Sequence record: DRR378314_578 | DNA: 64,000 nucleotides | Direction: 5' to 3' (one strand) | Shown: one piece after another, positions 18,217 through 41,752 of the stretch | Numbering within the stretch: the first letter of the stretch is position 1 | Layout: every line of letters starts with the position of its first letter | Made by a program: the position numbers and the translations under genes | The notes under the pieces: generated by a model | What the model was told of the DNA's origin: nothing | Databases searched by the model: none | Seen by the model: the letters and a program-made list of their open reading frames with translations, nothing else

Positions 18217-18278
18217 TATTAATACGTTTCAATTTTACCCCTTTTTAAAAACAAAAATCTTTAATTAAACTTCTAAAA

Positions 18279-19616: not shown

Positions 19617-19814
19617 AATTATTGTTGGTTTAAAAGTGAAGTCACCAACCTCATGTTGAATGCCTTTTGATTAGAGGTAAAATGAATGTCACTCTTTACC
19701 ATTCGTTCGCATAAAGCCGACTTATATATCAAATCATTAAATACTGTCTTATCTATTTATTAATCGGACTAGACTTAAGACCGTAACTTATATTAATGAA
19801 ACTTGGGAACTAAT

Positions 19815-20921: not shown

Positions 20922-20936
20922 AACCTCTCCTTTAGT

Positions 20937-22280: not shown

Positions 22281-23386
22281 TGACAGTACTGCGACATATT
22301 GTCCTATACTTATTTGTAATGAATATTTCAAGTGGAGCACTGATGTATATTGGTGCTGGAATCGGATCAATAACAAGCTATCTGTCGTTTATACTCTTAT
22401 TGATTTACTATTTCTTTGTAAAAAAGGGCAAAATCAACTTATGGATGATAGTACTAGGTCTATTGTATTTCGCTTTTGCAGGTTTACAATATTATGATGA
22501 CACAAGTTATTTTATCAATGTCACAATAAAATATTTTATAATTATTCTCGGTGGTTATGAAGTAGTAAAAAGAACATCCAACAAAGAATTTATTGTTGTT
22601 TTATTGTTGGGGTCGATTACCATACTGCTGCATGCAGCTGTATTGGGTGGTGGTTCTGCCGATTATGGCCGATTTAGTGGGTTTTATATCAATCCAAATG
22701 CTGCAGGTTTTATTTGTATCTCGGGTTACGCCCTGGCATATTCATTGGAGAATAAAAGAGTAAGGCTGCTGGCACAAATTATTTTCACCTTGATGGGATT
22801 GCTCACCTTGTCAAGAACTTTTATTGTCTTGTGGATTATGTTAAATTTAATTTCCCTGAAAATAAACATAAAAAATATTCGAGTATTCGTATATGGTTTT
22901 GGTCTTTTATCCCTATTGCTCATTTTTAGTGAACTATTGCCAGTTAAAAATCCCAGAATAGAGCAGCTCAAGGCTATTACAAGTAGTAACGAAGAAGTAA
23001 GTGTGAGTGAAATAAATGAAGACTCAAGAACAGAAACATGGAGTAAATATTTTGATGACATAGGAAACAAGCCATTTTTTGGAAATGGATTTATGTCATT
23101 TACCAAAAAGTCTTTTTTAAGTGAAAAAGTGGGGATACATAATACCTTTTTGTTGGTATGGGGGGAGGCTGGTTTTATCCCTTTTATTATTATTGTTGTG
23201 TTTTATGTGAGAATGCTTGTGTATAGTTTCCGACTGTTCAATCATGAACCAAATCTGTTGATGCAATCCATAGGGCTCTTTTTCTTTCTAATGGCATCCC
23301 ATGTTTTCTTTACACATGCATTTATATTGTTTATTTCCATGTGGATCCAATTTCAAATAGAAAAAAATAAACCGCTGTTAGAATGA
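22277..23386 (+). CDS. Wzy polymerase / O-antigen ligase family membrane protein
   Basis: About 10 TMs with [16 protein letters not shown] and PFFGNG..HNTFL..E.G (Wzy_C-like). Confidence 0.8.
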
Positions 23387-23922
23387 AAAAATTATTTAGT
23401 AAACTCAAGGCATATTACCATTGGTATACCAAAAGCAATAAGGAATATGCTCGGTACCTGGGAGTGGAAATAGGGAAAGACTGCAGAATCTATATTAGGG
23501 ATTTCGGTTCAGAGCCCTGGTTAATTAAAATTGGGGACAAGGTAACCGTTACACATGGTGTCAGATTTATCAACCATGACGGTTCTACATGGCTTATTGC
23601 TGACGAGAAAGGAAGAAGACAACTATTTAAGAGAATCAATATTGGGAATAATGTTTTTATAGGGATGAACTCTATTATCCTACCAGGGGTAAAAATAGAG
23701 GACAATGTTATAATTGCAGCTGGCAGTGTGGTCACAAAATCAATACCCTCTGGTTACATTGTGGGAGGCAATCCAGCCAAAATTATTATGGATTTCGAGT
23801 CTTATGAAAAAAAGGTATTAGATACGTACGTCAGTAATCAAGATCTTGATTTTTCCAAAAACTATAAAGAACGCGTTCTCGACATAGTTGATAATTCCTT
23901 TAAGCCCAATTTAAAACCATAG
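23383..23922 (+). CDS. Hexapeptide-repeat (LbH) O-acyltransferase
   Basis: [42 protein letters not shown]. Confidence 0.88.
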
Positions 23923-23936
23923 AATAAGTAAGGCAA

Positions 23937-25028
23937 ATGAATAATACTAATAGAAAAAAAGTTTGTTTTGTTCTCCCGTCATTAGGAGCGGGTGGAGCCG
24001 AAAGGGTAATTTCATTTGTTGCACAACAAGTAGATACGACTAAATTTGAAGCTGAACTATTGGTAATCGGTTTTGAAAAAGATACCCATTACAAAATCGA
24101 GGGGATTAAAGTGCTTTACCTGAACAAACCAAGGGTCTTAACCTCAATCCCTAAATTATACACCTATCTACAGAGAAGTAAGCCAGATATTGTGCTAAGT
24201 GCAATTGGCCACCTAAATGCTGCAATGGCTTTAATGTCCCCTTTCTTTAAGAAAACAAAATTTATAGGTCGTGAGGTAAATGTTATTAGTGTTTTGAAAA
24301 ATTATTCCCAAACCCAAAGAAAAAGATTGATAAATTTACCCGACTATATAAAACTAAGCTACCCATTACTTGATAAGATTGTGTGTCAATCTAACGATAT
24401 GGCTAATGATTTGATCAAGAATTATGACATAGACCCCTCAAAAATACAAGTCATCAATAACCCGATCACAGGAGGTTTCAGGCTAAAACAAACTCATGAA
24501 AATTCCGGTAAAAATGCGTTCAGGTTAATAACCGTTGGTAGGCTGGCAAAACAAAAGGGGCACCTACGAATACTCGATGCTTTAAAGTTGGTCAAATTGC
24601 CCTTTCATTATACAATCATTGGAGATGGACCGGAAAAGGAAAACATATTTGAAAAGTTAAAACAGTTAGGTTTGTCCAAGTGTGTGACCCATGTCCCACA
24701 TACGGATAAAGTCTCCGATTTTTTGTGCCAGAGCGACCTTTTTATCCAAGGATCTTATGTAGAAGGGTTCCCTAACGCGCTCTTGGAAAGTTGTGCAGTT
24801 GGCACACCGGTAGTAGCTTTCAAGGCCCTTGGAGGTATCGATGAAATTATAGAAAACGGCATTAACGGGTATATCGCTGAAGACATCGAAGATTTTGCGG
24901 GTAAAATAACTCAAATACTATCTTCGCGACAGCAATGGAGACCTAAAACTGTGAGCGATTCTGTTTATGAAAAATATAGTTCAAAAATAATTATTGCTGA
25001 ATACAACAACCTGCTTGAATCCATATAA
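23937..25028 (+). CDS. GT4 glycosyltransferase
   Basis: GGAERV, VGRLAKQKG and EGFPNALLES. Confidence 0.9.
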   Translation: MNNTNRKKVCFVLPSLGAGGAERVISFVAQQVDTTKFEAELLVIGFEKDTHYKIEGIKVLYLNKPRVLTSIPKLYTYLQRSKPDIVLSAIGHLNAAMALMSPFFKKTKFIGREVNVISVLKNYSQTQRKRLINLPDYIKLSYPLLDKIVCQSNDMANDLIKNYDIDPSKIQVINNPITGGFRLKQTHENSGKNAFRLITVGRLAKQKGHLRILDALKLVKLPFHYTIIGDGPEKENIFEKLKQLGLSKCVTHVPHTDKVSDFLCQSDLFIQGSYVEGFPNALLESCAVGTPVVAFKALGGIDEIIENGINGYIAEDIEDFAGKITQILSSRQQWRPKTVSDSVYEKYSSKIIIAEYNNLLESI

Positions 25029-25048
25029 ACAGGCTCCTATACCTTAAA

Positions 25049-26203
25049 ATGAGACAAAAAAAAAGACTGTCAATTTTCATAAACAACCTAAGCCACGGAG
25101 GAGCACAAAAAATTGCTTCCGTCCTTGCCAAGGAACTCATGCTGGAATTTGAAGTTTATCTTGTGCTACTTACCGAAAATATTGTTTATGATGTTCCTGA
25201 AAACATCAAAATTGAAGTGCTCTCGAAAGACAAAAAAGGAAACTTTCTAGATAAACTTGCCAACATTTATAGATACTATGCTTTCTGCAAAAAAAACAAA
25301 ATTGATGTCTCATTATCTTTGTTGACGCAACCAAACTACATATCCGCATTGACGAAGATCCTGGGTTCAAAAACGAAGATCATACTTAGCGAACATACCT
25401 ATCAATCCTTATGGAGGGCCAACGAAAAATTGTATGCAATCATAAAAAAAAATGTAATCCGGTATCTGTATAATAAAAGTGATAAAATCATTACCGTATC
25501 CAATAAGATTAGATTGGACTTAATGGACAATTATGGAATCAAAAAAGAAAAACTGGTGACCATATTTAATCCATATCCCATAAAAAAAATCAGTAGCTTG
25601 TCAAAAGAAGGGGTTGAAAGTTCAAAGAACCATAAAACCTTTACTTTCATTACGGTAGGAACACTATACCATGTAAAAAACCAAGAACTCCTTTTACGCT
25701 CTTTTGCCAAATTAAAAAACAAAGATGTACGTTTGGTCATAGTCGGGGATGGTGAGCTTAAGGATTATTTGACACAATTGAGCAAACAATTGGGCATTGA
25801 GAATTTGGTCAAATTTGTTGGTTTTACTGATAATCCCTTCAAATATTTAGGAGCTTCGGACATTTTTATCCTTAGCTCTAACAATGAAGGCCTACCCAAT
25901 GTAATTATTGAGGCATTAGCTTGTGAATGTCCCGTTATTTCGACCGATTGCATTTCTGGTCCCAGAGAAATATTGGCCCCCAACTCACCCATAGAATTTC
26001 ATTTGACAAACAACATCGAGTTTGCTGAATTTGGTGTGCTCGTACCCATAAAAAATGAAAAATTGATGGCAGAAGCAATGGAATCCCTGCTAGAAAATAA
26101 GGATCTTTTGCGAAAATATAAAAAAGCTGCCTTTGACAGAGCAATGTTCTTTGATTCAAAGAACTCCATAAACAGCTATATACAAAACTTACAGTTAATC
26201 TAA
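25049..26203 (+). CDS. GT4 glycosyltransferase (PglJ-like)
   Basis: GGAQK, EGLPNVIIEA and STDCISGPREILAP. Confidence 0.9.
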   Translation: MRQKKRLSIFINNLSHGGAQKIASVLAKELMLEFEVYLVLLTENIVYDVPENIKIEVLSKDKKGNFLDKLANIYRYYAFCKKNKIDVSLSLLTQPNYISALTKILGSKTKIILSEHTYQSLWRANEKLYAIIKKNVIRYLYNKSDKIITVSNKIRLDLMDNYGIKKEKLVTIFNPYPIKKISSLSKEGVESSKNHKTFTFITVGTLYHVKNQELLLRSFAKLKNKDVRLVIVGDGELKDYLTQLSKQLGIENLVKFVGFTDNPFKYLGASDIFILSSNNEGLPNVIIEALACECPVISTDCISGPREILAPNSPIEFHLTNNIEFAEFGVLVPIKNEKLMAEAMESLLENKDLLRKYKKAAFDRAMFFDSKNSINSYIQNLQLI

Positions 26204-26220
26204 AAATACCTACATATCCA

Positions 26221-28119
26221 ATGTGCGGAATAAATGGAATAATAACAAAACAGGCAACTCCCGGTAATGAAATAGCGAAACTGTTGACAGAGATGAACAA
26301 CCTCATCATTCACCGGGGCCCGGATGAGGATGGTTTTTTTGCGGAAGCCAATGATTCATTTTCCGTGGGAATGGCCATGAGGCGTCTGTCCATTATTGAC
26401 CTAACATCGGGCAAACAACCCATTTTTTCGGAAGACCAACAAATCATAATCGTATTCAATGGTGAGATTTACAACTACCGTGAATTAAAATCTGAACTCC
26501 TTGAAAAAGGGGTGACCTTTAAAACTACAAGTGATACGGAGGTTATCCTAAAACTTTACGAGTTGGAAGGCACAGCTTCCTTTAAAAAACTGGATGGCAT
26601 GTTCGCCTTTAGTGTTTATGACAAAAGAATAGGGAAGTTATATATCGCACGCGACTTTTTTGGGGAAAAACCACTGTATTACACTACTTTGGGAAACCGT
26701 TTTATATGGGCATCCGAGTTAAAATCCATAGTGGACCTATTGGATTCCAAGCCCGATATTTCCCCTAAAGGATTGAACCTGTTTTTTAGGCTCACTTACG
26801 TACCTGCTCCACATACCATTTATGCTGGGGTATATAAGCTGGAGGCCAATCATTTTATGGAGTACGATCTACAGGCCCATACTTTTAACATAAAACCGAT
26901 CAATGAAGAGCCCGAGCCTAGACCTCAGCACATTTCTTTTGATGATGCCAAGAAAAAAGTAAGGCAAATGGTATACCAAAGCGTGGACAGCAGGTCGGTA
27001 TCGGATGTTCCGCTAGGAACTTTCCTTTCAGGGGGGGTCGATTCTTCCATAGTCTCGCTCTGCCTTTCTCAAGCAACCGGCAAGAAAATTGAAACCTTTT
27101 CAATTGGTTTCAAGAAAACACGGTTTGATGAAACTGACAAATCCCAATTAGTGGCAAAACTCATCAATAGTAATCATCATGAATTTATAATTGACGAAGA
27201 CGATCTTAAGGATAACATACATGAAATTCTGATTAATTTTGATGAACCGTTCTCCGACACCGCTTCCCTCCCCACCTACCTTGTTTCCAAAAAAACAAGG
27301 GAACACGTTACCGTTGCACTAACTGGAGATGGTGGTGATGAGGTTTTTGGAGGATACAATAAATACTATGTTGGCAAAATGAACAGTCGATATACCAAAA
27401 TGGTTCCAAAGCTTGTTCATGAACCAATCCGAAAAATGGCCAACACAATTCTTGCCACAAAGGATGATAATAGAGGCAAGCGTTTCAAAATAAAAAAGCT
27501 GCTAAACAGTATTGATTATGACGGTCAGTCTTATTGGGACATTATTTCACTCGCCAATACACAAAGCTTACTTGCCGAAATTCTGCAGCCCAGTCTTTTG
27601 GACCTTGACATTTTTGGGGAGTACAAGCAAAAACTAAATCTTCCCAAGGCAACAACCCTAACCCATTTCAGACAAATTGATAAAATTGTAAGTTTAGAGG
27701 GAGGAATGCTACCAAAAGTGGACCGTACCAGCATGATGAATTCTTTGGAATGTCGTGCGCCATTTTTGAATAGGGAACTGTGGGAATTTGCAAATACACT
27801 TCCTGAGGAGTATTTAATGAAAGGATGGAACAAAAAATATATTCTTAAAGAAGCTTTTAAAAATCAATTTCCAGACCAATTTCTGGAAAGAAGTAAGAGC
27901 GGTTTTGGATCTCCCGTTGGCGATTGGCTAAGACAGAGCCTGAGAAAAGAATTGGAAAGCTACATAGAACCTCAAAAACTTGGTGTCCAGTCCATCTTTA
28001 AGCAAGAGACAATTACGAAACTTGTAAAGGACCATTTAAGTGGCAAAAAAGACAATACTTTTCGGGTATGGGCCTTTTATTGTTTCCAAAAATGGTATTG
28101 GAGCGTATATCTGAAATAA
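26221..28119 (+). CDS. asnB: Asparagine synthase-like glutamine amidotransferase (probably uronate amidation, WbpS/WbqG-like)
   Basis: MCGI N-terminus, HRGPD, RRLSIID, NGEIYN, LSGGVDSS and GDGGDE. Embedded among glycosyltransferases. Confidence 0.9.
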   Translation: MCGINGIITKQATPGNEIAKLLTEMNNLIIHRGPDEDGFFAEANDSFSVGMAMRRLSIIDLTSGKQPIFSEDQQIIIVFNGEIYNYRELKSELLEKGVTFKTTSDTEVILKLYELEGTASFKKLDGMFAFSVYDKRIGKLYIARDFFGEKPLYYTTLGNRFIWASELKSIVDLLDSKPDISPKGLNLFFRLTYVPAPHTIYAGVYKLEANHFMEYDLQAHTFNIKPINEEPEPRPQHISFDDAKKKVRQMVYQSVDSRSVSDVPLGTFLSGGVDSSIVSLCLSQATGKKIETFSIGFKKTRFDETDKSQLVAKLINSNHHEFIIDEDDLKDNIHEILINFDEPFSDTASLPTYLVSKKTREHVTVALTGDGGDEVFGGYNKYYVGKMNSRYTKMVPKLVHEPIRKMANTILATKDDNRGKRFKIKKLLNSIDYDGQSYWDIISLANTQSLLAEILQPSLLDLDIFGEYKQKLNLPKATTLTHFRQIDKIVSLEGGMLPKVDRTSMMNSLECRAPFLNRELWEFANTLPEEYLMKGWNKKYILKEAFKNQFPDQFLERSKSGFGSPVGDWLRQSLRKELESYIEPQKLGVQSIFKQETITKLVKDHLSGKKDNTFRVWAFYCFQKWYWSVYLK

Positions 28120-28129
28120 ATAAAATATA

Positions 28130-29266
28130 ATGTCAAAAAAAAATATTCTTATAGCGTGTTCAATGGATAGATCTTTGGTTGGATTCAGGGGAGATTTTAT
28201 ACAAAATCTACTAAGTGAAGGCTACAATGTATATACTGCCTCTCCCAACCTCACAGAATCTATTGCCAAAAAATTGAAACGTTTTGGAGCAAAGCCACTA
28301 CAATACGAATTGACAAGAGCCGGTATAAGCCCGTTTGGGGATTTAAAATCCATTAGACAGTTAAAACAAATAATGATCAACCATAATATAGATTTGGTTT
28401 TTCCCTATACTATTAAACCCGTTATTTATGCCTCTATGGCCGCAAACAAATTGAATATTCCAGTGATTTCTTTGATTACCGGCCTAGGGTTCACGTTTAC
28501 AGGAGTCTCCTCCAAAGCTCGGATTTTACAGAAAGTGGTCGAATTCTTATATAAAAAGTCGATTAGAAAAAATAGCTTGGTAATTTTTCAAAATATAGAC
28601 GATCAAAAACTTTTCCAAGAACGGGGCATTCTAAAGCTAAATCAGAAAACAGATGTTGTAGACGGTTCTGGGGTTAACTTAGAAAGATATAATTTTAGAA
28701 TAAACAACAAAACTGAGGACAACGTAATTTTCATTTTCGTTGCACGCCTCATAAAAGAAAAGGGAATCCATCTTTTCATCAATGCTGCCAAAGAGCTAAA
28801 GCAGAAATTTCCAAATGCTCAATTTCATGTTGTAGGAGCTCCTGACCAATCACCCTCATCAATAAAACCAGAAGAAATACATGAATTGGATAAAAAAGGT
28901 ATCATAAATTATCATGGTCGGGTAAATAATGTTCCTGAGTTATTGCAACATTCAGATGTGTTTGTTTTACCAACATATTATCGCGAAGGTGTGCCCAGGT
29001 CTATACTCGAAGCTTTATCTGTTGGCCTACCTATTATAACTACCGATACTCCAGGATGTAGGGAAACTATCTTGAATGATCAAAATGGTGTTTTAATTCA
29101 ACCTAACCAACAGGAAGAGCTTACTGATGCTATGCGTTTTTTCTTGGAAAACAAGAAGAAAATCAAGGAAATGGGAAAAGAAAGCAGAAAGTTAGCCGAA
29201 AACAAGTTCGATGTGAACATTATTAATAAAAAATTGATAAATCACATAAACCAAAGCCTATCTTAG
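28130..29266 (+). CDS. GT4 glycosyltransferase (PglA/CapM-like)
   Basis: FRG, YTIKP.IY, ITGLG, GSGV and YYREGVPRSILEA..TDTPGCRE. Confidence 0.9.
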   Translation: MSKKNILIACSMDRSLVGFRGDFIQNLLSEGYNVYTASPNLTESIAKKLKRFGAKPLQYELTRAGISPFGDLKSIRQLKQIMINHNIDLVFPYTIKPVIYASMAANKLNIPVISLITGLGFTFTGVSSKARILQKVVEFLYKKSIRKNSLVIFQNIDDQKLFQERGILKLNQKTDVVDGSGVNLERYNFRINNKTEDNVIFIFVARLIKEKGIHLFINAAKELKQKFPNAQFHVVGAPDQSPSSIKPEEIHELDKKGIINYHGRVNNVPELLQHSDVFVLPTYYREGVPRSILEALSVGLPIITTDTPGCRETILNDQNGVLIQPNQQEELTDAMRFFLENKKKIKEMGKESRKLAENKFDVNIINKKLINHINQSLS

Positions 29267-29354
29267 ATTCGTATTTATAATCAGTACTTGGAACTGATTA
29301 ATTTACTGGAAATTAAAGAGGTTCTTGTTTTCATTAGACTAAAACATTTAATTT

Positions 29355-29972
29355 ATGTACATATTTGGTGCCGGTGGTCATGGAAAAGCAATAATAGACT
29401 TAATCATTTCTGAATTTGGATTAAAAATAGACGGTCTATTTGATGATAATCAAAATGGTGAGATTATGGGAATACCCATCACCAGCATAGAAGACCATAG
29501 TCTTTCTACTGAACAAGATTTCCATATTGCAATAGGGAACAATCAAATACGAAAAGAGATTTCCCATAAGCTGAACGTAAACTATCCAAAGTTGGTTCAT
29601 CCCTCAAGTACGATTTCCAAATTCGCCAAATTAGAAGATGGTACGGTAGTAATGCCACAATCCTCAATTAAGGCAATGACGGAAATTGGAAAACATTGCA
29701 TTGTTAATGCAGGAGCCATTATCGGTCATGACGTAAAGATTGGTGATTACGTCCATATTGCCCCAAATAGTGCCGTGGCAGGTTTTGTAAATATAGAAGA
29801 GGGTGTACATATAGGGCTGGGCGCCTCGGTAATCCAAGGAGTTAATATTGGAAAATGGTCCATAATCGGCGCTGGTGCTGTAATTATCAAAGACGTTCCC
29901 GACTATTCTGTTGTTGTGGGAAACCCTGGAAAAATTATTAAGTCGGTGATACACCACAATACGACTCCTTAA
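29355..29972 (+). CDS. PglD/NeuD/EpsM-type sugar N-acetyltransferase
   Basis: GAGGHG, IAIGNN..R, catalytic-type His in IGHD, and hexapeptide repeats. Confidence 0.9.
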   Translation: MYIFGAGGHGKAIIDLIISEFGLKIDGLFDDNQNGEIMGIPITSIEDHSLSTEQDFHIAIGNNQIRKEISHKLNVNYPKLVHPSSTISKFAKLEDGTVVMPQSSIKAMTEIGKHCIVNAGAIIGHDVKIGDYVHIAPNSAVAGFVNIEEGVHIGLGASVIQGVNIGKWSIIGAGAVIIKDVPDYSVVVGNPGKIIKSVIHHNTTP

Positions 29973-30205
29973 CAACTCCTTTCCCACCGATAGTCTGTTC
30001 CATAGATAATATTATATTGCCAAAATATAGAAAACAAATGGTCTACATAGCTTGTCTCTTGTAATCAATGTTTTAAGCGGACAACAATTAAACTTATTAA
30101 TTAGCCTTTGGTCTATAAAAAATCCATTGTAAGGAACAAATCATTTTTTTTGTTATCCTTAGAAAATGTCTGTTTACTTGTACCATTAAAAATAAATCAA
30201 TCGAC

Positions 30206-30820
30206 GTGTACACCAATTTCATTAAGAGGCTTCTGGACTTTATCCTATCTTTAATAGGGTTTGCAATTTTGTCTCCCATTTTCATTTTCACCTATCTTGT
30301 AATCTTACTTATCAACCATGGAAATCCCCTGTTTTTTCAAAAAAGACCTGGTAAGAATGAGAAGGTCTTCAAAATAATGAAATTTAAAACCATGACCGAC
30401 CAGCGGGACTCAGAAGGAAATTTGTTGCCAGATGAAGAAAGGTTGACCAAAATTGGAGACTTTATGCGTAAATCTTCCTTGGACGAAATTCCTCAGTTAA
30501 TCAATGTTATAAAAGGGGACATGAGTTTAGTAGGACCGAGACCACTGCGGGTTCATTATTTGCCCCATTATACAAAAAGAGAAGCTTTAAGACACACTGT
30601 TAGGCCAGGAATTACAGGGTTGGCACAAGTTTCAGGAAGAAATGCCCTTGGGTGGGATCAAAAATTGGAGAAAGATGTTGAGTACGTGGAAAATCTATCT
30701 TTTGCTTTGGATTTATCCATATTAATGAAGACAGTGGCAAAAGTATTCAAAGGTTCAAACGTAATTCTTGATGATACAATGCAGACTTTTGATGAATATA
30801 GAATGAATCAATCCAAATGA
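30206..30820 (+). CDS. Small monotopic phosphoglycosyl transferase (PglC/EpsL type)
   Basis: KRLLD, F.Q.RPG, KFKTM, SLDEIPQL.NV..GDMSLVGPRP and RPGITGLAQV. GTG start. Confidence 0.93.
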   Translation: MYTNFIKRLLDFILSLIGFAILSPIFIFTYLVILLINHGNPLFFQKRPGKNEKVFKIMKFKTMTDQRDSEGNLLPDEERLTKIGDFMRKSSLDEIPQLINVIKGDMSLVGPRPLRVHYLPHYTKREALRHTVRPGITGLAQVSGRNALGWDQKLEKDVEYVENLSFALDLSILMKTVAKVFKGSNVILDDTMQTFDEYRMNQSK

Positions 30821-31593
30821 GAATTTTATTATTGACAGGTCTTGGCTTAAGGAGCAATATTGTTTATGCACACCTAAATAAGAATCATAAGGTGATTGGT
30901 ATAGTGATTGATAATACCTATAGCCGAAAAAAAGCAATTGCGGATAAAATTAAGAGAAGAATCAAAAAATATGGTTGGATCAAGGTAATCGGGCAAATCC
31001 TGTTTACAAGGATTATGGTTCCGTTGCTAAAAATAGAATCAAAAAAACGAACAGAAAACCTGTTAAAAGATAGGCTTGCAAAAAAGCCTTCCAAACATTT
31101 TAATGTGTTAAAAACCAATGATATTAATAGTAGGGAAGTTCATGATTTTATTCTAAAGAACAATCCTGACCTTATCGTTGTTCACGGTACTACCATAATT
31201 AAAGAAGAAACCCTCTCCATTTTGGACAATAGGCCCATAATCAACTTCCATGTTGGAATTACACCGAAATACCGTGGGCTCCATGGTGGGTATTGGGCGC
31301 TCTATAATGGCGATGAGGCCAATTTTGGATCTACTGTGCATTTTTTGGATAAAGGAATTGATACTGGTGCCGTAATCAAACAAAAAAGAATGAAACCCAC
31401 AAAGCATGACAATTTTTACACTTACTTATTGCTCCAAACCATTAAAGGCCTTAAATCTTTGGATGAGGCAATAAATTTTATCGCCAATGGCGGGAACATT
31501 AAAAAAAGTGAAAATGGTAAAAAAGGTAAATTTTATACGCAACCAACTATTTCGCAATATCTATACAAACGACTTGTATATGGTGTTAAATAA
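30817..31593 (+). CDS. Formyltransferase (N10-formyl-THF-dependent fold)
   Basis: INFH.G..PKYRG and GSTVHFLDKGIDTG motifs. Confidence 0.85.
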   Translation: MRILLLTGLGLRSNIVYAHLNKNHKVIGIVIDNTYSRKKAIADKIKRRIKKYGWIKVIGQILFTRIMVPLLKIESKKRTENLLKDRLAKKPSKHFNVLKTNDINSREVHDFILKNNPDLIVVHGTTIIKEETLSILDNRPIINFHVGITPKYRGLHGGYWALYNGDEANFGSTVHFLDKGIDTGAVIKQKRMKPTKHDNFYTYLLLQTIKGLKSLDEAINFIANGGNIKKSENGKKGKFYTQPTISQYLYKRLVYGVK

Positions 31594-31611
31594 ACTACTA
31601 TTGAGGACAAA

Positions 31612-32481
31612 ATGATTCAACCAATACTAGATAATATATATGTGTATAGAGATGACCTATTCCCCTTCTTAGGAGGCGGTAACAAGGCTAGAAAAATGAT
31701 AGCCCTAGATAATGTTGTTAAGAAAGGGTTATATGATGCACTGGTAACCACTGGAGGTATACAATCTAATCATTGTCGTGCAACAGCACTTTATTGTCAA
31801 AAATTCAATCTTGGCTGCACTCTAGTCATTCATGGCAATGAATCGGAATTCCATGAACAATCCGGTAATGCAAAAATAATGCGGGAGTGCGAAGCAGACT
31901 TAATTTTCTGTGACGCCTCGGAGATTTCCATGGTTATGGATCAGGCAATGGAAGATTACCGAAAAAAGGGACATAAGCCTTATTATCTCTACGGAGGTGG
32001 ACATACTTTAGAAGGTGGAAAGGCTTATTCAGATGAAATTGAAAGGATAGTAAAAAGTGGTTTCACCCCAGAACAAATTTATATTGCATCAGGAACTGGG
32101 TCCACTCAAGCGGGGATTCTTGCCGGAGTCTCCAAACTTGGCCTTGACACTAAGGTAATCGGAATTTCGATTGGCAGACAAAAGGAAAGAGCAGAAAAGG
32201 TCCTTAGGGAGTTTTATGAACAGTTGTGCCATAGCCAAAATATACCATGTACCGGAGAAGTCACTGTAGACGATAGGTTCCTATGTGGCGGTTATCAACA
32301 ATACAATGAGGGTATCCTAAATACCGTAAAAAATTCCCTGGCAAAATATAATATCCTATTGGATACCACATATACCGGAAAAGCGTTTTATGGAATGCTG
32401 GAAATATTGAAAGAAAAACCTAGCCAAGGCAATGTTTTGTTTTGGAACACAGGGGGAATGTATAATTACTTTTCTACATGA
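31612..32481 (+). CDS. ACC deaminase / D-cysteine desulfhydrase family PLP enzyme
   Basis: RDDL..GGNKARK, GGIQSNHCR, SGTGST.AG, D..YTGKA and WNTGG. Confidence 0.85.
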   Translation: MIQPILDNIYVYRDDLFPFLGGGNKARKMIALDNVVKKGLYDALVTTGGIQSNHCRATALYCQKFNLGCTLVIHGNESEFHEQSGNAKIMRECEADLIFCDASEISMVMDQAMEDYRKKGHKPYYLYGGGHTLEGGKAYSDEIERIVKSGFTPEQIYIASGTGSTQAGILAGVSKLGLDTKVIGISIGRQKERAEKVLREFYEQLCHSQNIPCTGEVTVDDRFLCGGYQQYNEGILNTVKNSLAKYNILLDTTYTGKAFYGMLEILKEKPSQGNVLFWNTGGMYNYFST

Positions 32482-33494
32482 TTGAAATAATACATAAAAA
32501 AGAAGATTGGGACCGGGTTTTATCGGAAATTGGCAAGTTTGATTTCTATCATACCTATGGATACCACAATGTACTCGCTAATGAAGGTGAGCAACCATTA
32601 TTGGTGGTGTATTCTTCACAAGATATAATAATCGCTTTCCCATTTGTTAAGCGCAAAATCAATGAGAAATATTACGATATAAAAAGTGTCCATGGTTATT
32701 TGGGGCCCGTGCATACTGACCTACCCCCAGATTTCGATAACACAGATTTTAAATCCGAATTTGAGGAATTATTGGTTTCGGAAAATATTGTTACGGCTTT
32801 TTCCAGACTAAATCCCTTTTTAAACGGACAAGCCAAGGTACTTGAGGCGTTAGGGCAAATAGAGACCATTGGTGAGTTAATCTATTTTGACCAGCAAATG
32901 GACGATGAGACACAAAAGTCCCACTACAACAAAAATACCAGGCGAACTCTAAAAAAATTAAGGCAGACCGCTAGTGTCATTGAAGGGAAAAGCCCATCGG
33001 ACATTGACACTTTCATTGAAATCTACCACAATACCATGCGCCGATTAAATGCCAAAGAAGTTTTCTATTTTGGTCATGACTATTTCAATGAACTGATAGA
33101 CTCTGAGCAAATTAATAGCAAAATATTATTTGCTGTACATAATGAAACAAAGGACATCATTGCAGCTGCCTTTGTTACACATTCTGGTGAGATTTGTCAT
33201 CTTGAGCTGGTGGCTACCAATGAGGACTATTTTAAATATAGCCCTTCGAGGCTTCTTTATGATGAAGCCAGGTCCATTATGAAAAATGATGAAATTAAAT
33301 ATTTGGTGCTGGGCGGTGGCACTGGAGGTAGAGAAGGTTCGTTAATGCGGTTTAAATCATCGTTCACCCAGAATTACATAGATTATAACATCTGGAAGTT
33401 TATAGCAATTCCAGATATTTATGAATCACTACAAAGTGAATTTCAAAGAAACCATGAATCCAATTTTTTTCCAAAATATAGAATACCAGAATAG
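32478..33494 (+). CDS. GNAT/FemAB-like acyltransferase
   Basis: DFYHTY.Y, GYLGP, IY..TM.R..A...YF and LGGG...SL.RFK.SF pattern. Confidence 0.75.
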   Translation: MIEIIHKKEDWDRVLSEIGKFDFYHTYGYHNVLANEGEQPLLVVYSSQDIIIAFPFVKRKINEKYYDIKSVHGYLGPVHTDLPPDFDNTDFKSEFEELLVSENIVTAFSRLNPFLNGQAKVLEALGQIETIGELIYFDQQMDDETQKSHYNKNTRRTLKKLRQTASVIEGKSPSDIDTFIEIYHNTMRRLNAKEVFYFGHDYFNELIDSEQINSKILFAVHNETKDIIAAAFVTHSGEICHLELVATNEDYFKYSPSRLLYDEARSIMKNDEIKYLVLGGGTGGREGSLMRFKSSFTQNYIDYNIWKFIAIPDIYESLQSEFQRNHESNFFPKYRIPE

Positions 33495-33524
33495 GTATTA
33501 AGTATAAAATAAACAAATACTGAT

Positions 33525-34535
33525 TTGAATATATTATTTACATGTGCCGGAAGACGGAACTACCTCATTAACTACTTCAAGGAAGCTTTGAATGGTGAGG
33601 GTACCATATTGGCTGCTGATAACCAATTATCAGCTCCGGCAATGGTTGATGCGGATATCTCAATAAAGGTTCCAAGTATTTATTCCCCCAACTATATAGA
33701 AAAGTTAAAAAGTATCATCCGGGAATATAAGGTGAATGCTATTATTTCACTCAACGACCTAGAGCTACCTATACTTTCCAATAACAAAGTTGAATTGGAA
33801 ACCCTAGGGGTTAAAGTATTGATTTCTGAAAACGATATTGTTGACATTGCTTTTGATAAGTGGAAAACAGTTGAATTTGTGGAAAAAATAGGGCTGAAAT
33901 CCCCAAAAACATTTTTAACAATAGCTGACACTATTAACGCCGTTGAAAAAGGCGCCATCAGTTTTCCTATTGTTATTAAGCCAAGATGGGGTAGCGCTTC
34001 TATAGGAATAGAATTTCCAGAAAACAGGCGAGAATTTGAATTGATGTATGAGTTGCTGAAAATGAAGCTCAAAAAATCTATTCTGAACAATGTAAACGAT
34101 GTTGAGGTTGAAAGTGCGCTTATCTTTCAAGAAAAAATAGCTGGAGATGAGTATGGAATGGATGTACTCAATGATTTTAACGGCAACTATTTTGGAACTT
34201 TTGCCCGCAAAAAATTATCCATGCGGTCGGGAGAAACTGACAAAGCCATGTCTTATATTGATAGTGCATTATCCCAAATTGGTCAAACTTTAGGAGAAAA
34301 TTCCAAATATTTGGGCAATATGGATTGTGATGTCTTTGTCAAAGATGGTCAGACATATGTATTGGAGCTTAATCCACGATTTGGGGGCGGCTACCCATTT
34401 TCACACGAAGCGGGTATCAATACAGCTTCCATTTATATTTCTTGGCTAAAAGGAAACCATGATGTAAGTCAATTTAATAATTACAAGCATGGTTTGGTCT
34501 TTTCAAAATGTGATAGAATGATCAAAATTCGTTGA
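33525..34535 (+). CDS. ATP-grasp domain ligase
   Basis: NIL.T.AGRR, DKW, IKPRWGSAS, QE.I.G.EY and ELNPRFGGG. Confidence 0.85.
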   Translation: MNILFTCAGRRNYLINYFKEALNGEGTILAADNQLSAPAMVDADISIKVPSIYSPNYIEKLKSIIREYKVNAIISLNDLELPILSNNKVELETLGVKVLISENDIVDIAFDKWKTVEFVEKIGLKSPKTFLTIADTINAVEKGAISFPIVIKPRWGSASIGIEFPENRREFELMYELLKMKLKKSILNNVNDVEVESALIFQEKIAGDEYGMDVLNDFNGNYFGTFARKKLSMRSGETDKAMSYIDSALSQIGQTLGENSKYLGNMDCDVFVKDGQTYVLELNPRFGGGYPFSHEAGINTASIYISWLKGNHDVSQFNNYKHGLVFSKCDRMIKIR

Positions 34536-34569: not shown

Positions 34570-35517
34570 CTATTTTCTTTTTGCAAAACCTTCCATTGCC
34601 AACTTGTCCGAAATAAGCTTTGCCAACAATTTTCTACCATTATTGTTCCAATGTTGGTCATATATCAATGTGGTAGGTTCTTTTGATGCTTCAAAAATAT
34701 TGGCATAATCCATGTAGTCGTAGTTATGCCTTTTTAGATAAGACACAAAACGCTCATCAGTCTGGTCTGAGTTCAACAAAAAGATCATCCTTTTCCTATC
34801 AAACCCATATTTTTCTATTACCGATTCAAAGTTACTTGCTCTTGTTGGATAGGTATCTGACATATCAAGATGATCCTCTTTTTTTATGTTCTTTTTCAAA
34901 AACTTAAGAGACATTATATTCCCTACCATATTCTTGATTGGATCAAAAAGGCCAATCATTTTTGCATACACATACAACTTGGAATGGTTTAGAAATGGAA
35001 GTGCAAGTTTTCTTTCTACATATTTATATTCCGCTCTATCCAAATCCCCTTCATAGTCCAGATATATGATTATTTTATCAATCTTGTCAAACTCTTCTTG
35101 ATAAGATTCCATCAAATGCATAGCATCCGCAAAATCATTGCTAGAGTGCCCATATTCATAAACTTTGATTCCAGGCATGCGTTCTTCAATTTTTTTTCCA
35201 ATTGAATTGTCAACATCTTGATGGAATCCTTCAATAAATGAGTCCCCTACAATAGCTACTTCAATACTATCCGCCGACGGGTTAAAATCCTTTTCGGAAT
35301 TAAAACCAGAACTATTGATATGGTATTTAGCAAAATTCTGTCGCCGATTTCCATGTACTGAGTATCCCGTTTGGCCTGGTATCCATTTAAGTATTCCTTT
35401 CTCATCCGTATACCTGATTGGGCGATCGTCATATAAATGAAAAAATCGAACCAATGCCTCAAAAACCAACATCATTAAAATGAAATAGAATACTATTTTA
35501 ACCAAAATCTTTCTCAT
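34570..35517 (-). CDS. Membrane-anchored SGNH-fold protein (AlgJ/PatB/DltD-like acyltransferase)
   Basis: N-terminal TM, block I GDSF and C-terminal DQHWN (DxH). Lies 2 nt downstream of the MBOAT gene. Confidence 0.75.
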   Translation of the reverse strand: MRKILVKIVFYFILMMLVFEALVRFFHLYDDRPIRYTDEKGILKWIPGQTGYSVHGNRRQNFAKYHINSSGFNSEKDFNPSADSIEVAIVGDSFIEGFHQDVDNSIGKKIEERMPGIKVYEYGHSSNDFADAMHLMESYQEEFDKIDKIIIYLDYEGDLDRAEYKYVERKLALPFLNHSKLYVYAKMIGLFDPIKNMVGNIMSLKFLKKNIKKEDHLDMSDTYPTRASNFESVIEKYGFDRKRMIFLLNSDQTDERFVSYLKRHNYDYMDYANIFEASKEPTTLIYDQHWNNNGRKLLAKLISDKLAMEGFAKRK

Positions 35518-35519
35518 CT

Positions 35520-36971
35520 CTAAAACTGAAAATATATAAATGACCGGTCTACTCCATCATCATAAAATAATAGCATTAAAAACACAAGGACGGTATAAAC
35601 AGCAAACCTCACAAACTTACTCTTAAAATTAAATGGATTTCTCTCATCCCTTCGCATGACATATTCAAAGACCACAAAAGCGAACAATAAAACAAAATAG
35701 TCGATCATTCTATAGCCTCTTGGATGCAGGTATGGCCCGTAGGTAAGCCCGAATAACATTTCCTTTAGGTACATCCATGACATTGAAAGACTTTCGCTTC
35801 TAAAAAACACCCAGCCCACCGTTACCAAAAAGAATGTCATCACAATTTGACTACCTTCTATTGCAAAACTTTTAATAGAAGAGAAAACATGGGGAACGTC
35901 CATGAATCGCCTATGCGACTTATTAAAAAATAATGGTATAAAAAGCAAAGCATGAAAAAAGCCCCAAAAAATAAAAGTCCAGTTGGCTCCATGCCAAAAT
36001 CCACTTACTAGAAATATTATCAATACATTTCGTACTGCTTTTATCTGTTTAGTTTTTGAACCTCCAAGAGGGATATATAAATAATCCCTAAACCAAGTGG
36101 ACAATGAAATGTGCCAACGTCTCCAAAACTCCCCAATATCTCTGGAAAAGTACGGAAATTTAAAATTGGACATCAATTCAACACCAAATAGTTTTGCAGT
36201 ACCAATAGCAATATCCGAATAGCCCGAGAAGTCACCATATATTTGAAACGCAAAAAATATAGCTCCCATCGCCAATGTCGATGATGGATATTGGGCTGCA
36301 TTTGTGAAGATATCATCAACCATTGGAGCCAACGAATCCGCAACTACTACTTTTTTAAATAGCCCCCAAAGCATCAACTTTAATCCATCACTTGCTTGTC
36401 CATAATCAAACTTTCTTTTTCTGGAGATTTGTGGCATCAGATTGGATGCACGTTCAATCGGACCAGCCACCAACTGGGGGAAAAAGCTCACGAAAGTTGC
36501 AAATGCAACGAAATCCTTCGTAGGTTTGAGTTTGCCTTTATAAATGTCCAAAGAATAGGACAATGTCTGAAATGTATAGAAAGAAATTCCGACTGGGAGT
36601 ATTATATTCAGTGTCCATACATTACTAATTTGATGGCCGAAGAATGAGAAGGTTTCCACGAAAGAATCCACAAAAAAATTATAATACTTAAAGAATCCTA
36701 GAAGGCCGAGATTACAAACTATACTTACCCAAAGATAGTTTCGCTTTATTTTTCTATTTGTTGTTTTTGCTATTCCCAAGCCAACAAAATAATCCACTAT
36801 TGTTGAGAATAGGATTAGTGACAGAAATCGATAATCCCACCAGCCGTAAAACACATAACTGGAAAATAATAAAAGTAGATTTTGGACCTTTAGTGATTTA
36901 TTGTTCAAAAACCAATATGCAAAATATACTATTGGTAAAAAGACAAAGAACTCTAATGAGTTAAATAACAT
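35520..36971 (-). CDS. MBOAT acyltransferase (AlgI/PatA/DltB type)
   Basis: LPVGISFYTFQ, FFPQLVAGPI, DFSGYSD, FWRRWHISLS.W.RDY and SGFWHGA. C-terminus FIYFQF. Confidence 0.93.
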   Translation of the reverse strand: MLFNSLEFFVFLPIVYFAYWFLNNKSLKVQNLLLLFSSYVFYGWWDYRFLSLILFSTIVDYFVGLGIAKTTNRKIKRNYLWVSIVCNLGLLGFFKYYNFFVDSFVETFSFFGHQISNVWTLNIILPVGISFYTFQTLSYSLDIYKGKLKPTKDFVAFATFVSFFPQLVAGPIERASNLMPQISRKRKFDYGQASDGLKLMLWGLFKKVVVADSLAPMVDDIFTNAAQYPSSTLAMGAIFFAFQIYGDFSGYSDIAIGTAKLFGVELMSNFKFPYFSRDIGEFWRRWHISLSTWFRDYLYIPLGGSKTKQIKAVRNVLIIFLVSGFWHGANWTFIFWGFFHALLFIPLFFNKSHRRFMDVPHVFSSIKSFAIEGSQIVMTFFLVTVGWVFFRSESLSMSWMYLKEMLFGLTYGPYLHPRGYRMIDYFVLLFAFVVFEYVMRRDERNPFNFKSKFVRFAVYTVLVFLMLLFYDDGVDRSFIYFQF

Positions 36972-36995
36972 ATATCAAACTTGGTGGTTAATCCA

Positions 36996-38702
36996 TTATT
37001 TGGTTAAAACGTAATTGCCTATCACCAAAGCATCCAAGCCTGTGGACCAAAAACAGCGGATGGCATCATTGGGCGACTCCACCACTGGTTCTCCTTGGAT
37101 ATTAAAACTAGTGTTCAAAACAACCGGAACACCCGTTTTCTTTCCAAGCTTCTCAATAACTTCATAGTATCTCGGATGCAACTCTTTTCGAACTGTTTGA
37201 AGACGGGCACTTCCATCCACATGGGTCACAGCAGGAATTACTGATTGTTTTTCCGGAAGCACATTACAAACTTTGAGCATAAAAGGGGCTTCAACTTCCA
37301 GATCAAAAAATTCGTCCTTTGCCTCTACAATGGCTGAAGGTGCAAATGGTCGATAGGCCTCTCTGAATTTAACCTCTGCATTAATCTTGTCTTTCATATC
37401 TGGAAATGCAGGATTGGCTAAGATACTTCGACTTCCAAGGGCTCTTGGCCCTACCTCCATCCTATCTTGGAACCAACCAATAATCTTCCCTTTTTGCAAT
37501 AGCTCCGCAGCATAATCACATATATCTTCAACGTATTCATATTTTAACTTAGCGCCATCTAATACAGTTTTAATCTCTTTATTAGAATATTTAGTACCTA
37601 AATAAGGATTATCATGTACAAAATTTCTTGGTCTGTCGAGAATACCGTTATAAAGATAATAAGCTGCTCCCAAAGCAGTTCCATTGTCACCTGCCGCTGG
37701 CATTACATAAACATCTTTAAATTTACTTTCGCGCACAATCCTACCGTTCATTACACTGTTCAAAGAAACTCCCCCTGCGATTACAAGGTAATCTTCCTTT
37801 GTCTTGGCATAAAGTATATCACATATCTCGAGTACCTTATCTTCTAAAACTCTTTGAAATGCTGCTGCTACATCTTGATGCCGTTGTGTGAACTTCTCAT
37901 TTGGCTTTCGGGCTGGGCCAAAGGTTTTTTCAAATTTATCTGAATAACGTTTTGCTGCCAGATACTGAAAATTAAAATAGCTCAAATCTAATTTGAACCT
38001 TCCCTTTTCATCAACGTTAATAATTTTTTTGACCTCCTCTAAATAGGTTTCAGGATTACCCATTGGTGCCAAGCCCATGGTTTTACCTTCATCATAATTG
38101 GGTTTGAAGCCACAAAATTGAGTGACAGCTTCATAAAAAGACCCCAAAGAATGTGGGAAAAAATTCTCACTTATTTTATTGATTTTATTGCCATTGCCTT
38201 GTCCAATCCAAGTGGTTGCCCATTCTCCCGCACCATCAATTCCTAGAAGAGCAGCACTTTTGTAGGGTGAAACAAAGAATGAACCTGCAACATGGGTCAA
38301 ATGGTGTTCAATAAAGTAAACTTTTGGCTTTTTGTCGCTTTTCCCCCAGTTCTCATTGTACCAGGCCCAAAAATTTCGCTGCATTAGATAGGTGTGTCCT
38401 ACGTGGTGCCCAACAAACCTTAAAAGGTTTTTGGACCTCACCAAGCCAAGAAAATATGATATCACATAAATTACCTTGTTCAGCCAATTGTGTTTTGGTT
38501 TTATGGATACAGCTATGTAGTCAACATCCTCATACGTAAGATTCGAATCTTGTAAACATCTCTTAGCAGAAAGTTTAGGAAACTCACGAGTATGTTTATC
38601 CCTATTTAATCTTTCCTCTTCAATTGCAGATTTAAGTTGTCCATCTATCACGACACAGGCAGATGAATCATGGAAAAAATAATTTAATCCAAGTATGACC
38701 AT
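36996..38702 (-). CDS. O-carbamoyltransferase (NodU/CmcH/TobZ family)
   Basis: HDSSA, EEERL.R.KH, HH..H, GGVSLNSVMN, GPRALG.RS, KFRE..RPFAP, THVDGSARLQT and LNTSFN. Confidence 0.93.
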   Translation of the reverse strand: MVILGLNYFFHDSSACVVIDGQLKSAIEEERLNRDKHTREFPKLSAKRCLQDSNLTYEDVDYIAVSIKPKHNWLNKVIYVISYFLGLVRSKNLLRFVGHHVGHTYLMQRNFWAWYNENWGKSDKKPKVYFIEHHLTHVAGSFFVSPYKSAALLGIDGAGEWATTWIGQGNGNKINKISENFFPHSLGSFYEAVTQFCGFKPNYDEGKTMGLAPMGNPETYLEEVKKIINVDEKGRFKLDLSYFNFQYLAAKRYSDKFEKTFGPARKPNEKFTQRHQDVAAAFQRVLEDKVLEICDILYAKTKEDYLVIAGGVSLNSVMNGRIVRESKFKDVYVMPAAGDNGTALGAAYYLYNGILDRPRNFVHDNPYLGTKYSNKEIKTVLDGAKLKYEYVEDICDYAAELLQKGKIIGWFQDRMEVGPRALGSRSILANPAFPDMKDKINAEVKFREAYRPFAPSAIVEAKDEFFDLEVEAPFMLKVCNVLPEKQSVIPAVTHVDGSARLQTVRKELHPRYYEVIEKLGKKTGVPVVLNTSFNIQGEPVVESPNDAIRCFWSTGLDALVIGNYVLTK

Positions 38703-38830: not shown

Positions 38831-40003
38831 TCAAAACTGTTCAATCACAAAATCCGACCTCCTGTTCTTGGAATGCTCTTCTTCGGTACAACGAACACCA
38901 TCCGTACACTTGTTGGTCAATCGGGTCTCTCCATAGGCCTCATGACTGATTCTATCCTCCGCAATTCCTTTGGAAATAACATATTCAACGGTGCGTTCGG
39001 CGCGACGCTCCGAAAGCCATTGGTTATATTGTTCTGTTCCCCTTGAATCGGTGTGGGCAGTTACCTTTATAGTCAAATTGGGTTCATCTTCCATAATAGC
39101 GACCAATTGATCCAATAACTCCCTATCCTGGGAAGTTAGGTAAGATGAATTCAATTTGAAATATACATTGCCCAAATTGTTGATTTTGTTCTGAAGTGCA
39201 GCTCTTCGTGCATCTTCCGCATCTTTTTTGGCCTTTTCTGCAGCGGCAAGCGCGGCGGCCTCTTTTTCTTTTTGTAGTCGCTCCGCCAGTAATCTAGCTT
39301 CCTCTTCAGCTTTGGCTATGGAGTCCTGAACCCTTTGTTGTTCTTTTTCCATTTCCTGCAACAGGGCCAATTTCTCAGCTCCTTTTCTGGAAAGTCCTTT
39401 CTCCACCTCAAACCTATAGGCCACACCCACGGCATGTTGGATATGGTTTGTAGCATTTTCTGTATCCATGGCCCATTTTCCGGTAGAGTTAAAGTCCACT
39501 CCCCAGTGATCGGAGAACCAAGTTCTAAAACCTACAATTGCATTGTAGGTACCCCTGCCCTGGTTGTTGGCATCGGTATAACCAGCTCCTATACCTATGT
39601 AAGGATCAAAGAAACCCGTATGACCTAATATTTGATTGAGATCATAGCTTACTCTAAAATCAAGTCCCCAATAATCAATATCCTCGGGATTGACAACATT
39701 ATCAACTATTTTCCCTTCTTTGTATCGGTTGTAAGAACCAATGGCTTCCAGTCCTATCCCATTTTTAAAATAACGGCCTATGCTTGCCCTAGATGGATAT
39801 GGAACCATGTTCCAACCTTCCTTAAAGTCAAACAGTTCGCCAAATTCATCTCCGGAATCATCTACAGCATTGGCTCCCACGGTAACCAACCAATAGCTTT
39901 GGACAATACTGTCCTTTTTGGTCCATTCAACGTCTTGGGCAAAGGTCAAGGTAAAAGAAAAAATAGCCATGACCAGCATGGTCAAAGGTTTTGAAATATT
40001 CAT
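38831..40003 (-). CDS. OmpA-family outer membrane protein (beta-barrel, coiled-coil linker, OmpA_C)
   Basis: Signal peptide, Ala/Glu/Lys-rich helix, VYF..NS, AHTDSRG..YN..LSERRA and NRRS. Confidence 0.9.
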   Translation of the reverse strand: MNISKPLTMLVMAIFSFTLTFAQDVEWTKKDSIVQSYWLVTVGANAVDDSGDEFGELFDFKEGWNMVPYPSRASIGRYFKNGIGLEAIGSYNRYKEGKIVDNVVNPEDIDYWGLDFRVSYDLNQILGHTGFFDPYIGIGAGYTDANNQGRGTYNAIVGFRTWFSDHWGVDFNSTGKWAMDTENATNHIQHAVGVAYRFEVEKGLSRKGAEKLALLQEMEKEQQRVQDSIAKAEEEARLLAERLQKEKEAAALAAAEKAKKDAEDARRAALQNKINNLGNVYFKLNSSYLTSQDRELLDQLVAIMEDEPNLTIKVTAHTDSRGTEQYNQWLSERRAERTVEYVISKGIAEDRISHEAYGETRLTNKCTDGVRCTEEEHSKNRRSDFVIEQF

Positions 40004-41724: not shown

Positions 41725-41752
41725 AAGACAAATCTAAGGCAATATTTATTAC

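Follow-up and report, generated by a model that had tools for sequence, protein, structure and literature searches.

A carbamoyltransferase gene linked to an MBOAT/SGNH pair with a C-terminal tyrosine motif in polysaccharide loci of Flavobacteriaceae

The DNA analysed here (sequence record DRR378314_578; 64,000 nucleotides, referred to as the window) carries on its minus strand three tightly spaced genes that encode, in order of transcription, a carbamoyltransferase (CT), a membrane-bound O-acyltransferase (MBOAT), plus an SGNH-fold protein (Table 1). The list of open reading frames (ORFs) placed intergenic gaps of 24 and 2 nt between them, and the trio converges across 34 nt with a plus-strand polysaccharide operon whose final ORF stops at position 34535. 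An earlier inspection of the letters by themselves (the sequence-only reading) had described these gaps and this convergence, and the ORF coordinates agreed with it exactly. The names of homologues point to Flavobacteriaceae, near Flagellimonas/Allomuricauda.

Table 1. Coordinates of the three-gene unit, its motifs and its flanking features in the window
Feature	Position	Strand	Basis
CT (CT-A clade), 568 aa, soluble, two-domain	36996..38702	-	PF02543 + PF16861
MBOAT, AlgI/PatA type, 483 aa	35520..36971	-	PF03062
C-terminal hexapeptide FIYFQF (FxYxxF acyl-shuttle motif, Tyr480)	35523..35540	-	Translation, homologue conservation
SGNH-fold protein, membrane-anchored, 315 aa	34570..35517	-	AlphaFold2 model, Foldseek, motifs
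GDS block, Ser93 predicted nucleophile	35239..35247	-	Motif + alignment
DQH block, Asp287 + His289	34651..34659	-	Motif + alignment
Wzx/Wzy-type polysaccharide locus	17173..34535	+	Pfam scan
OmpA-family gene, upstream of CT	38831..40003	-	Pfam scan

The MBOAT matched PF03062 at 97.2 bits (cut-off 27) and scored 158.8 bits with the DltB model (TIGR04091), below the cut-off of 375. In 40 aligned MBOATs, H287, H327 (within WHG), F478, Y480, F481, Q482 and F483 were invariant. The protein ends in RSFIYFQF, with residues 478–483 forming the FIYFQF hexapeptide exactly where the sequence-only reading had located it. As an FxY..F end was kept in 118 of the 119 MBOAT homologues listed and in all 96 full-length MBOATs from the loci fetched below, this tail is not a chance occurrence.

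The third protein, said earlier to carry GDS and DxH motifs, indeed contains them (i.e., G91-D92-S93 and D287-Q288-H289), S93 being invariant and D287 and H289 nearly so among 33 aligned SGNH sequences. An AlphaFold2 model based on the alignment of 33 relatives (mean pLDDT 90.6) displayed a helix at residues 2–25 and an SGNH core, and a Foldseek search with this model retrieved GDSL/SGNH chains, one of which was PatB (7TRR, E 2.8e-5), an O-acetyltransferase of peptidoglycan. Since neither Pfam nor NCBIfam yielded a match at E<=0.01, and no PDB sequence match was found either, its assignment to the SGNH family comes from fold and motifs only. In a pairwise BLASTP comparison with the SGNH protein of another locus (L105) the alignment was confined to the two motif blocks; relatedness across loci emerged only from iterated profiles over the fetched ORFs, i.e., within a small local database. 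The top Foldseek match (8A2N, E 3.9e-7) was CgnD, a protein from crocagin biosynthesis, which passages of the crocagin paper describe as an SGNH-like 'esterase' acting as a very slow leader protease, encoded in a cluster that also has a carbamoyltransferase (CgnI); its authors consider that carbamoylation might come before cleavage (PMC10070186).

Taken alone, the MBOAT and SGNH genes are an ordinary member of the MBOAT-SGNH shuttle kind, with a terminal FxYxxF motif and an adjacent SGNH partner bearing a predicted triad and anchor. In passages of a paper on these systems, DltB is described as loading D-Ala onto an invariant Tyr that lies in the FxYxxF tail of DltX, a microprotein, and PatA as auto-acetylating the Tyr in its own fused C-terminal hexapeptide. 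PatB, in turn, is described as accepting an O-acetylated FIYANF peptide as donor, and the same fused motif is mentioned for other MBOAT-SGNH pathways (PMC12148441).

The CT comprises full-length Carbam_trans_N (PF02543, 224.6 bits, E 3e-66) and Carbam_trans_C (PF16861, 236.5 bits, E 2e-70) domains, i.e., the Kae1-like N domain and YrdC-like C domain of NodU/CmcH/TobZ-type enzymes. Across 47 aligned CTs, H133, H134, H137, D156, D339 and G418-PRALG-423 were invariant; by analogy with TobZ, the His/Asp set would be the metal site and GPRALG the nucleotide motif. With the NodU equivalog model (NF041651) the CT scored 142 bits, far short of the cut-off of 1000.

The distribution of this CT was surveyed in 401 Flavobacteriaceae genomes, which are samples whose relatives are not independent. 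Its orthologues, referred to as the CT-A clade, were sharply bounded: 23 genomes held one at 67–74% identity, and the next-best matches dropped to 42%. A contig-end fragment from another family of the phylum (L303; G444:C17:3-1082) was 68% identical to residues 1–366 of the window CT, which could reflect transfer or contamination. When 8 kb on each side was fetched for all 23 orthologues, an MBOAT (61–68% identity) together with a relative of the window SGNH protein was found within 8 kb in 15 loci. The MBOAT orthologue itself (>=644 bits and >=60% identity) occurred in 65 of the 401 genomes, i.e., in 17 of the 23 with CT-A vs. 48 of the 378 others. Among the 17 genomes holding both, the two genes lay at most 5.6 kb apart in 15 and were directly adjacent in 14; random placement in genomes of ~4 Mb would be expected to produce well below one such case.

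This linkage came in at least five gene orders. CT>MBOAT>SGNH, as in the window, was found in five loci, MBOAT>CT>SGNH in L122, L126 and L127 (and in L115, with the SGNH gene inverted), and MBOAT>SGNH>CT in L119, L125 and L128, next to a convergent arrangement (L121), a CT ahead of two MBOAT-SGNH pairs (L114) and a separation of 5.5 kb (L129). Two loci (L008 and L127) show a 4-nt overlap between the end of the CT gene and the beginning of the SGNH gene, and the CT also adjoins non-orthologous MBOAT/SGNH pairs (L051, L114 and L007). Linkage this far above what chance or a shared locus type would give supports a shared target. It also makes it improbable that the CT and the pair merely hitch-hike, i.e., that they act on different targets and have been gathered at the variable ends of polysaccharide loci: although all examined loci are such ends, and the pair and the CT are each found alone, their closeness exceeds random placement and has outlasted five rearrangements, including insertion of the CT between MBOAT and SGNH. 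The CT clade is thus tied to MBOAT+SGNH pairs, but one-sidedly. The co-occurrence of the two clades put forward by the sequence-only reading stood when viewed from the CT (15 of 23 linked, in several orders) and failed when viewed from the MBOAT, as only 15 of 65 lie near a CT.

Our preferred interpretation, to which we give an even chance, is that the trio constitutes a decoration cassette, through which the polysaccharide of the adjoining locus would receive both cytoplasmic O-carbamoylation and MBOAT/SGNH O-acylation of the ordinary kind. As its family suggests, the CT would act in the cytoplasm, where it would turn carbamoyl phosphate and ATP into carbamoyl-adenylate and O-carbamoylate a sugar in the repeat unit under assembly or in its precursor. 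On the outside of the membrane, the MBOAT would load its own Tyr480 with an acyl group (most probably the acetyl group of acetyl-CoA), from where the membrane-anchored SGNH protein would hand it to the exported polymer, as in PatA/PatB and Dlt; the carbamoyl group would bypass the tyrosine. We propose that the three genes are co-transcribed and co-inherited because their products all dress the same polymer. The alignments, in which the catalytic motifs of CT, MBOAT and SGNH protein are all intact, are in favour of such a cassette.

A bolder possibility, raised by the sequence-only reading and in our view the less probable one, is a trans-membrane carbamoyl relay, in which the carbamoyl group would travel via Tyr480 and then the SGNH serine to O-carbamoylate the exported polymer. 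The CT would then dock at the cytoplasmic funnel of the MBOAT or make use of a CoA-bound thiocarbamate, and Tyr480 would receive an O-aryl carbamate. General chemistry lends this some plausibility, in that tyrosine O-carbamate is an aryl carbamate, a class of compound that readily donates carbamoyl groups to serines in active sites, and the related HypF carbamoylates a thiol. Against it, no form of donor is known that a CT could pass to an MBOAT.

The sequence-only reading had regarded the usual occurrence of close MBOAT orthologues without a CT as incompatible with such a relay, and this was the pattern observed: in 50 of the 65 genomes with an MBOAT orthologue no linked CT was present. In a separate sample of named genomes, drawn up independently around the MBOAT, a CT lay nearby in 4 of 20 cases. 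In the tree of the 65 MBOATs, 11 of 16 members of the basal grade were CT-linked, as were 4 of 49 in the derived subclade (all trees were neighbour-joining, midpoint- or outgroup-rooted and without support values, and the order of gains and losses was not inferred from them). Residues separating the CT-linked MBOATs (239, 244, 274, 282, 296, 312 and 387) were considered as an adaptation to a new donor and rejected, as they mark the derived, mostly CT-free subclade. At these seven most discriminating positions the CT-linked MBOATs carry the outgroup (ancestral) state, and those outgroup MBOATs have no CT. Moreover, among the 40 aligned MBOATs the CT-linked and unlinked proteins agreed in their conserved Arg and His residues and in the tail, and no residue change marked the CT-linked members among 33 SGNH sequences or among all 65 MBOATs.

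The CT was likewise found by itself. Neither an MBOAT nor an SGNH relative was present within 8 kb in 8 of the 23 CT-A loci, and these solitary genes are intact and lie inside polysaccharide loci, three of them in the same position next to an OmpA gene as in the window (L112, L118 and L131). Four of the five solitary-CT genomes tested contained only distant, unlinked MBOATs. In the fifth (G322; a single contig, 99% complete, with CT-A alone), no PF03062 match at E<=1e-5 was obtained genome-wide, nor any match to PF19451 (DUF5989), a family of tailed microproteins described below. These solitary genes, that of G322 included, indicate that the CT-A clade can work without a tyrosine shuttle, and the expectation from the relay that the CT always keeps a tail-bearing partner did not hold. 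The closest sister clade of CT-A (L133, L134 and L136-138) has no tail partner and is set among glycosyltransferases. In Flagellimonas sp. S174 (L007:2946-12829, plus strand), a C-terminally truncated CT (530 aa) precedes three MBOAT-SGNH pairs, whose MBOATs all end in FIYFQF; a deacetylase-like gene separates pairs two and three.

A different picture emerged from paralogous CTs, of which 40 genes (31–42% identity, from the same 401 genomes) were examined with 6 kb flanks. In 24 of these loci an ORF of 49–53 aa with a basic N-terminus and one hydrophobic helix was present within ~1.5 kb, and all 24 microproteins end in PF[IV]Y[ST][LI]F. Pfam identified the microprotein as DUF5989 (PF19451) and an adjoining small membrane protein as SxtJ (PF19588). 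A search for the DUF5989 family across the 401 genomes gave 25 matches, 24 of which were these CT neighbours, the 25th being weak and situated inside a 207-aa frame. World-wide, the family matched 3338 representative clusters (E<=0.001). Among the 150 best of these, FxYxxF forms the C-terminus in 135, and another 8 hold the motif internally. The FIY-type tail that the sequence-only reading had mentioned for SxtK/DUF5989 peptides next to other carbamoyltransferases was therefore confirmed. Relatives of the window SGNH protein (iterated profiles, E 1e-9 to 1e-76) were found in 21 of the 24 DUF5989 loci vs. 2 of the 16 without DUF5989, and one of the three DUF5989 loci without such a relative was a contig of just 2.7 kb. 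One of the two SGNH-positive loci among those 16 encodes a 951-aa fusion of an SGNH-like domain to a full carbamoyltransferase, without a membrane segment and flanked by MacB/FtsX permeases (L164:5941-8796, minus strand). A 79-aa acidic, soluble ORF beside it (L164:5692-5931, minus strand) that ends in FIYEMF was set aside as possibly due to chance, its only homologue being itself. In one DUF5989 locus (L141:9336-11465, minus strand) an AT3-family acyltransferase (PF01757) lies beside one of two SGNH-like genes, and both kinds of tyrosine-using acyltransferase systems meet there beside a CT.

In these paralogous systems, SxtJ and the tail of SxtK/DUF5989 would take the part of the MBOAT in a relay, and here we judge the balance to tip towards carbamoyl transfer by this route. 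An alignment of SxtJ revealed no conserved His, Cys or Ser suggestive of a catalyst. In two sources, SxtJ and SxtK are described as uncharacterised or as 'hypothesised to work in conjunction' (PMC2885083; bioRxiv 10.64898/2026.06.11.731795). The window itself has no SxtI/SxtJ/SxtK-type module: no tail-bearing small ORF was present in its 64 kb, in which the MBOAT is the only ORF ending in FxYxxF, and a family search of the nearest genome (G001; 37% of sampled words shared) returned no PF19451.

Beyond the family, 80 diverse metagenome CT loci contained a tail microprotein in 24 cases, an SxtJ relative in 29, an SGNH relative in 26, both tail and SGNH in 15, and an MBOAT in 2. Another 27 CT loci, from other families of the phylum, contained the microprotein in 14 cases and an MBOAT within 1.5 kb in 2; upon extension, these two read SGNH-like>MBOAT(FIYFQF)>CT and CT>MBOAT(FIYFRF)>AlgJ-like. 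The SGNH profile matched neither of the candidate SGNH partners (L330 and L331), which are termed SGNH-like from motifs by eye. Most telling is a metagenome operon (L287:1790-6862, plus strand) with the order SGNH (656 aa, with a PD40 repeat)>MBOAT (412 aa, ending in FFYFKF)>CT>DUF5989, with junctions that overlap or span 5 nt and without SxtJ; it lies outside any polysaccharide locus, between a nuclease and an ion channel gene. Elsewhere (L332:5831-8731, plus strand), a 966-aa protein carries a long N-terminal extension ahead of its carbamoyltransferase part, and this extension, judged by its first residues, looks like a GT4 glycosyltransferase.

Several of these observations weigh against two separate modifications. 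The adjacency of CT and MBOAT is much tighter than common locus membership requires (cf. the 15 of 17 genomes, 14 with direct adjacency, and the varied orders), and it is accompanied by the 4-nt CT/SGNH overlaps and by the non-orthologous pairs that the CT also adjoins. Moreover, divergent CTs adjoin divergent MBOATs in other families (L330, L331 and L279), L287 unites SGNH, MBOAT, CT and DUF5989, and in the paralogous clade the CT goes together with a microprotein that has a tyrosine tail and with SGNH relatives. Two CT clades tied to membrane proteins that end in FxYxxF, one SGNH family common to both, and the L287 hybrid, in which the MBOAT appears to have taken the place of SxtJ, are what a carbamoyl relay predicts. 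The constant company of DUF5989 and CT, the enrichment of SGNH relatives at DUF5989 loci, the metagenome loci with both tail and SGNH, and the SGNH-CT fusion of L164 point the same way. The relay is opposed by the solitary CT orthologues, one of them in a genome without MBOAT or DUF5989, by the CT-free majority of MBOAT orthologues, by the lack of any residue change marking CT-linked MBOATs or SGNHs, by the rarity of CT-MBOAT adjacency outside CT-A (the 2 of 80 and 2 of 27 loci above) and by an SxtJ without a catalyst-like residue. Of the relay proposed by the sequence-only reading, the compact unit, the linkage of CT to the pair and the SxtK tail have thus held up, but the mostly CT-free MBOATs, the CT alone in 8 of 23 loci and the ordinary MBOAT signature have not gone its way. 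We continue to prefer cytoplasmic O-carbamoylation combined with ordinary O-acylation, which is supported by the solitary CT-A genes (8 of 23), the CT-free MBOATs (50 of 65), the truncated CT of L007, the ancestral MBOAT residues and the tail-less sister clade. That this CT family feeds a tyrosine shuttle, whether through the FIYFQF of an MBOAT or through DUF5989/SxtK and SxtJ in thousands of loci, with extracytoplasmic O-carbamoylation as the outcome, is offered as a tentative and rather doubtful generalisation.

The genes surrounding the trio bear on yet another alternative. According to the Pfam scan, the polysaccharide locus encodes an epimerase, a UDP-sugar dehydrogenase, GT4 glycosyltransferases, a MurJ-like flippase, Wzy and an AsnB-like protein, together with hexapeptide and PglD-like acyltransferases and an initiating transferase. 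The end of the operon (30817-34535, plus strand) consists of genes for a formyltransferase-like protein, a pyridoxal phosphate (PLP)-dependent enzyme, a FemAB/GNAT-like protein and a PylC-like ATP-grasp protein, and these families, which also adjoin CT orthologues in L112, L118, L120 and L131, hint at an amino-acid-decorated sugar. The MBOAT/SGNH pair might then move another acyl group, e.g., an aminoacyl group supplied by the ATP-grasp or FemAB-like neighbours, with the CT acting independently. The position of these genes just 34 nt from the trio and their recurrence beside CT orthologues would fit, and the Dlt system, as described in PMC12148441, illustrates that MBOATs are able to move aminoacyl groups. 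Nevertheless, we regard this as unlikely, as no carrier protein gene was seen, the fused MBOAT tail is typical of acyl-CoA users and the MBOAT falls below the DltB cut-off.

On the other side of the trio, a GH3-beta-lactamase fusion (970 aa), a GT4 gene, the OmpA gene and then the CT form a minus-strand block (window 40582-44665 upstream of the OmpA gene). This block recurs in relatives without the MBOAT/SGNH pair (L118, and L112 as far as fetched), which gives the pair the appearance of having been inserted or lost at one fixed position. A sigma-70 promoter scan found 27 candidates vs. 20.6 expected from shuffles, i.e., no useful excess, with a model that does not cover Bacteroidota promoters.

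In the current understanding, MBOAT-SGNH pairs use a tyrosine to carry acetyl or D-alanyl groups outward. What is new here is the association of a carbamoyltransferase with such pairs, along with the unbroken connection of its paralogues with SGNH proteins and a DltX-like microprotein that has a tyrosine tail, and together these suggest that the same tyrosine route may carry carbamoyl groups. In titles and abstract openings of the literature, no paper was found that connects carbamoyltransferases with either a tyrosine shuttle or an SGNH transferase. If a relay does operate, it would constitute a new envelope modification chemistry and provide the first testable function for DUF5989/SxtK and SxtJ; if the ordinary alternative holds, the trio represents a clean, conserved two-modification cassette for the polysaccharides of marine Flavobacteriaceae.

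When compared with known systems, the trio resembles PatA/PatB, AlgI/AlgJ/AlgX and WssH-type systems in pairing an MBOAT that has a fused FxYxxF tail with a membrane-anchored SGNH protein that has a (here predicted) Ser-His-Asp triad. It differs from these systems in that its target is probably a Wzx/Wzy polysaccharide, its SGNH protein matches no Pfam family and a CT joins the unit, a combination that the literature search did not turn up for any of them. With NodU, NolO, CmcH and TobZ the window CT shares the same two Pfam domains and the conserved, presumed metal and nucleotide motifs, but those enzymes modify their soluble or lipid-linked acceptors directly and inside the cytoplasm, and the window CT scores far below the NodU cut-off. 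Like SxtI-SxtJ-SxtK of saxitoxin biosynthesis, where a CT of the same family stands beside two small membrane proteins, the window combines carbamoyltransferase and membrane partner, but it lacks SxtJ and DUF5989, and its tyrosine tail is fused to the MBOAT. Finally, Dlt follows the same logic, in which an enzyme in the cytoplasm performs the activation, a membrane protein and an element with a tyrosine tail come next, and an SGNH transferase acts on the outside. In contrast to Dlt, no carrier protein and no adenylating DltA are present here, the MBOAT is below the DltB cut-off, DUF5989 has no Pfam match to the DltX family and the group moved would be carbamoyl rather than D-alanyl; nevertheless, the four-part layout of DltA/C-DltB-DltX-DltD is mirrored by the paralogous loci, in which CT, SxtJ, DUF5989 and SGNH stand side by side.

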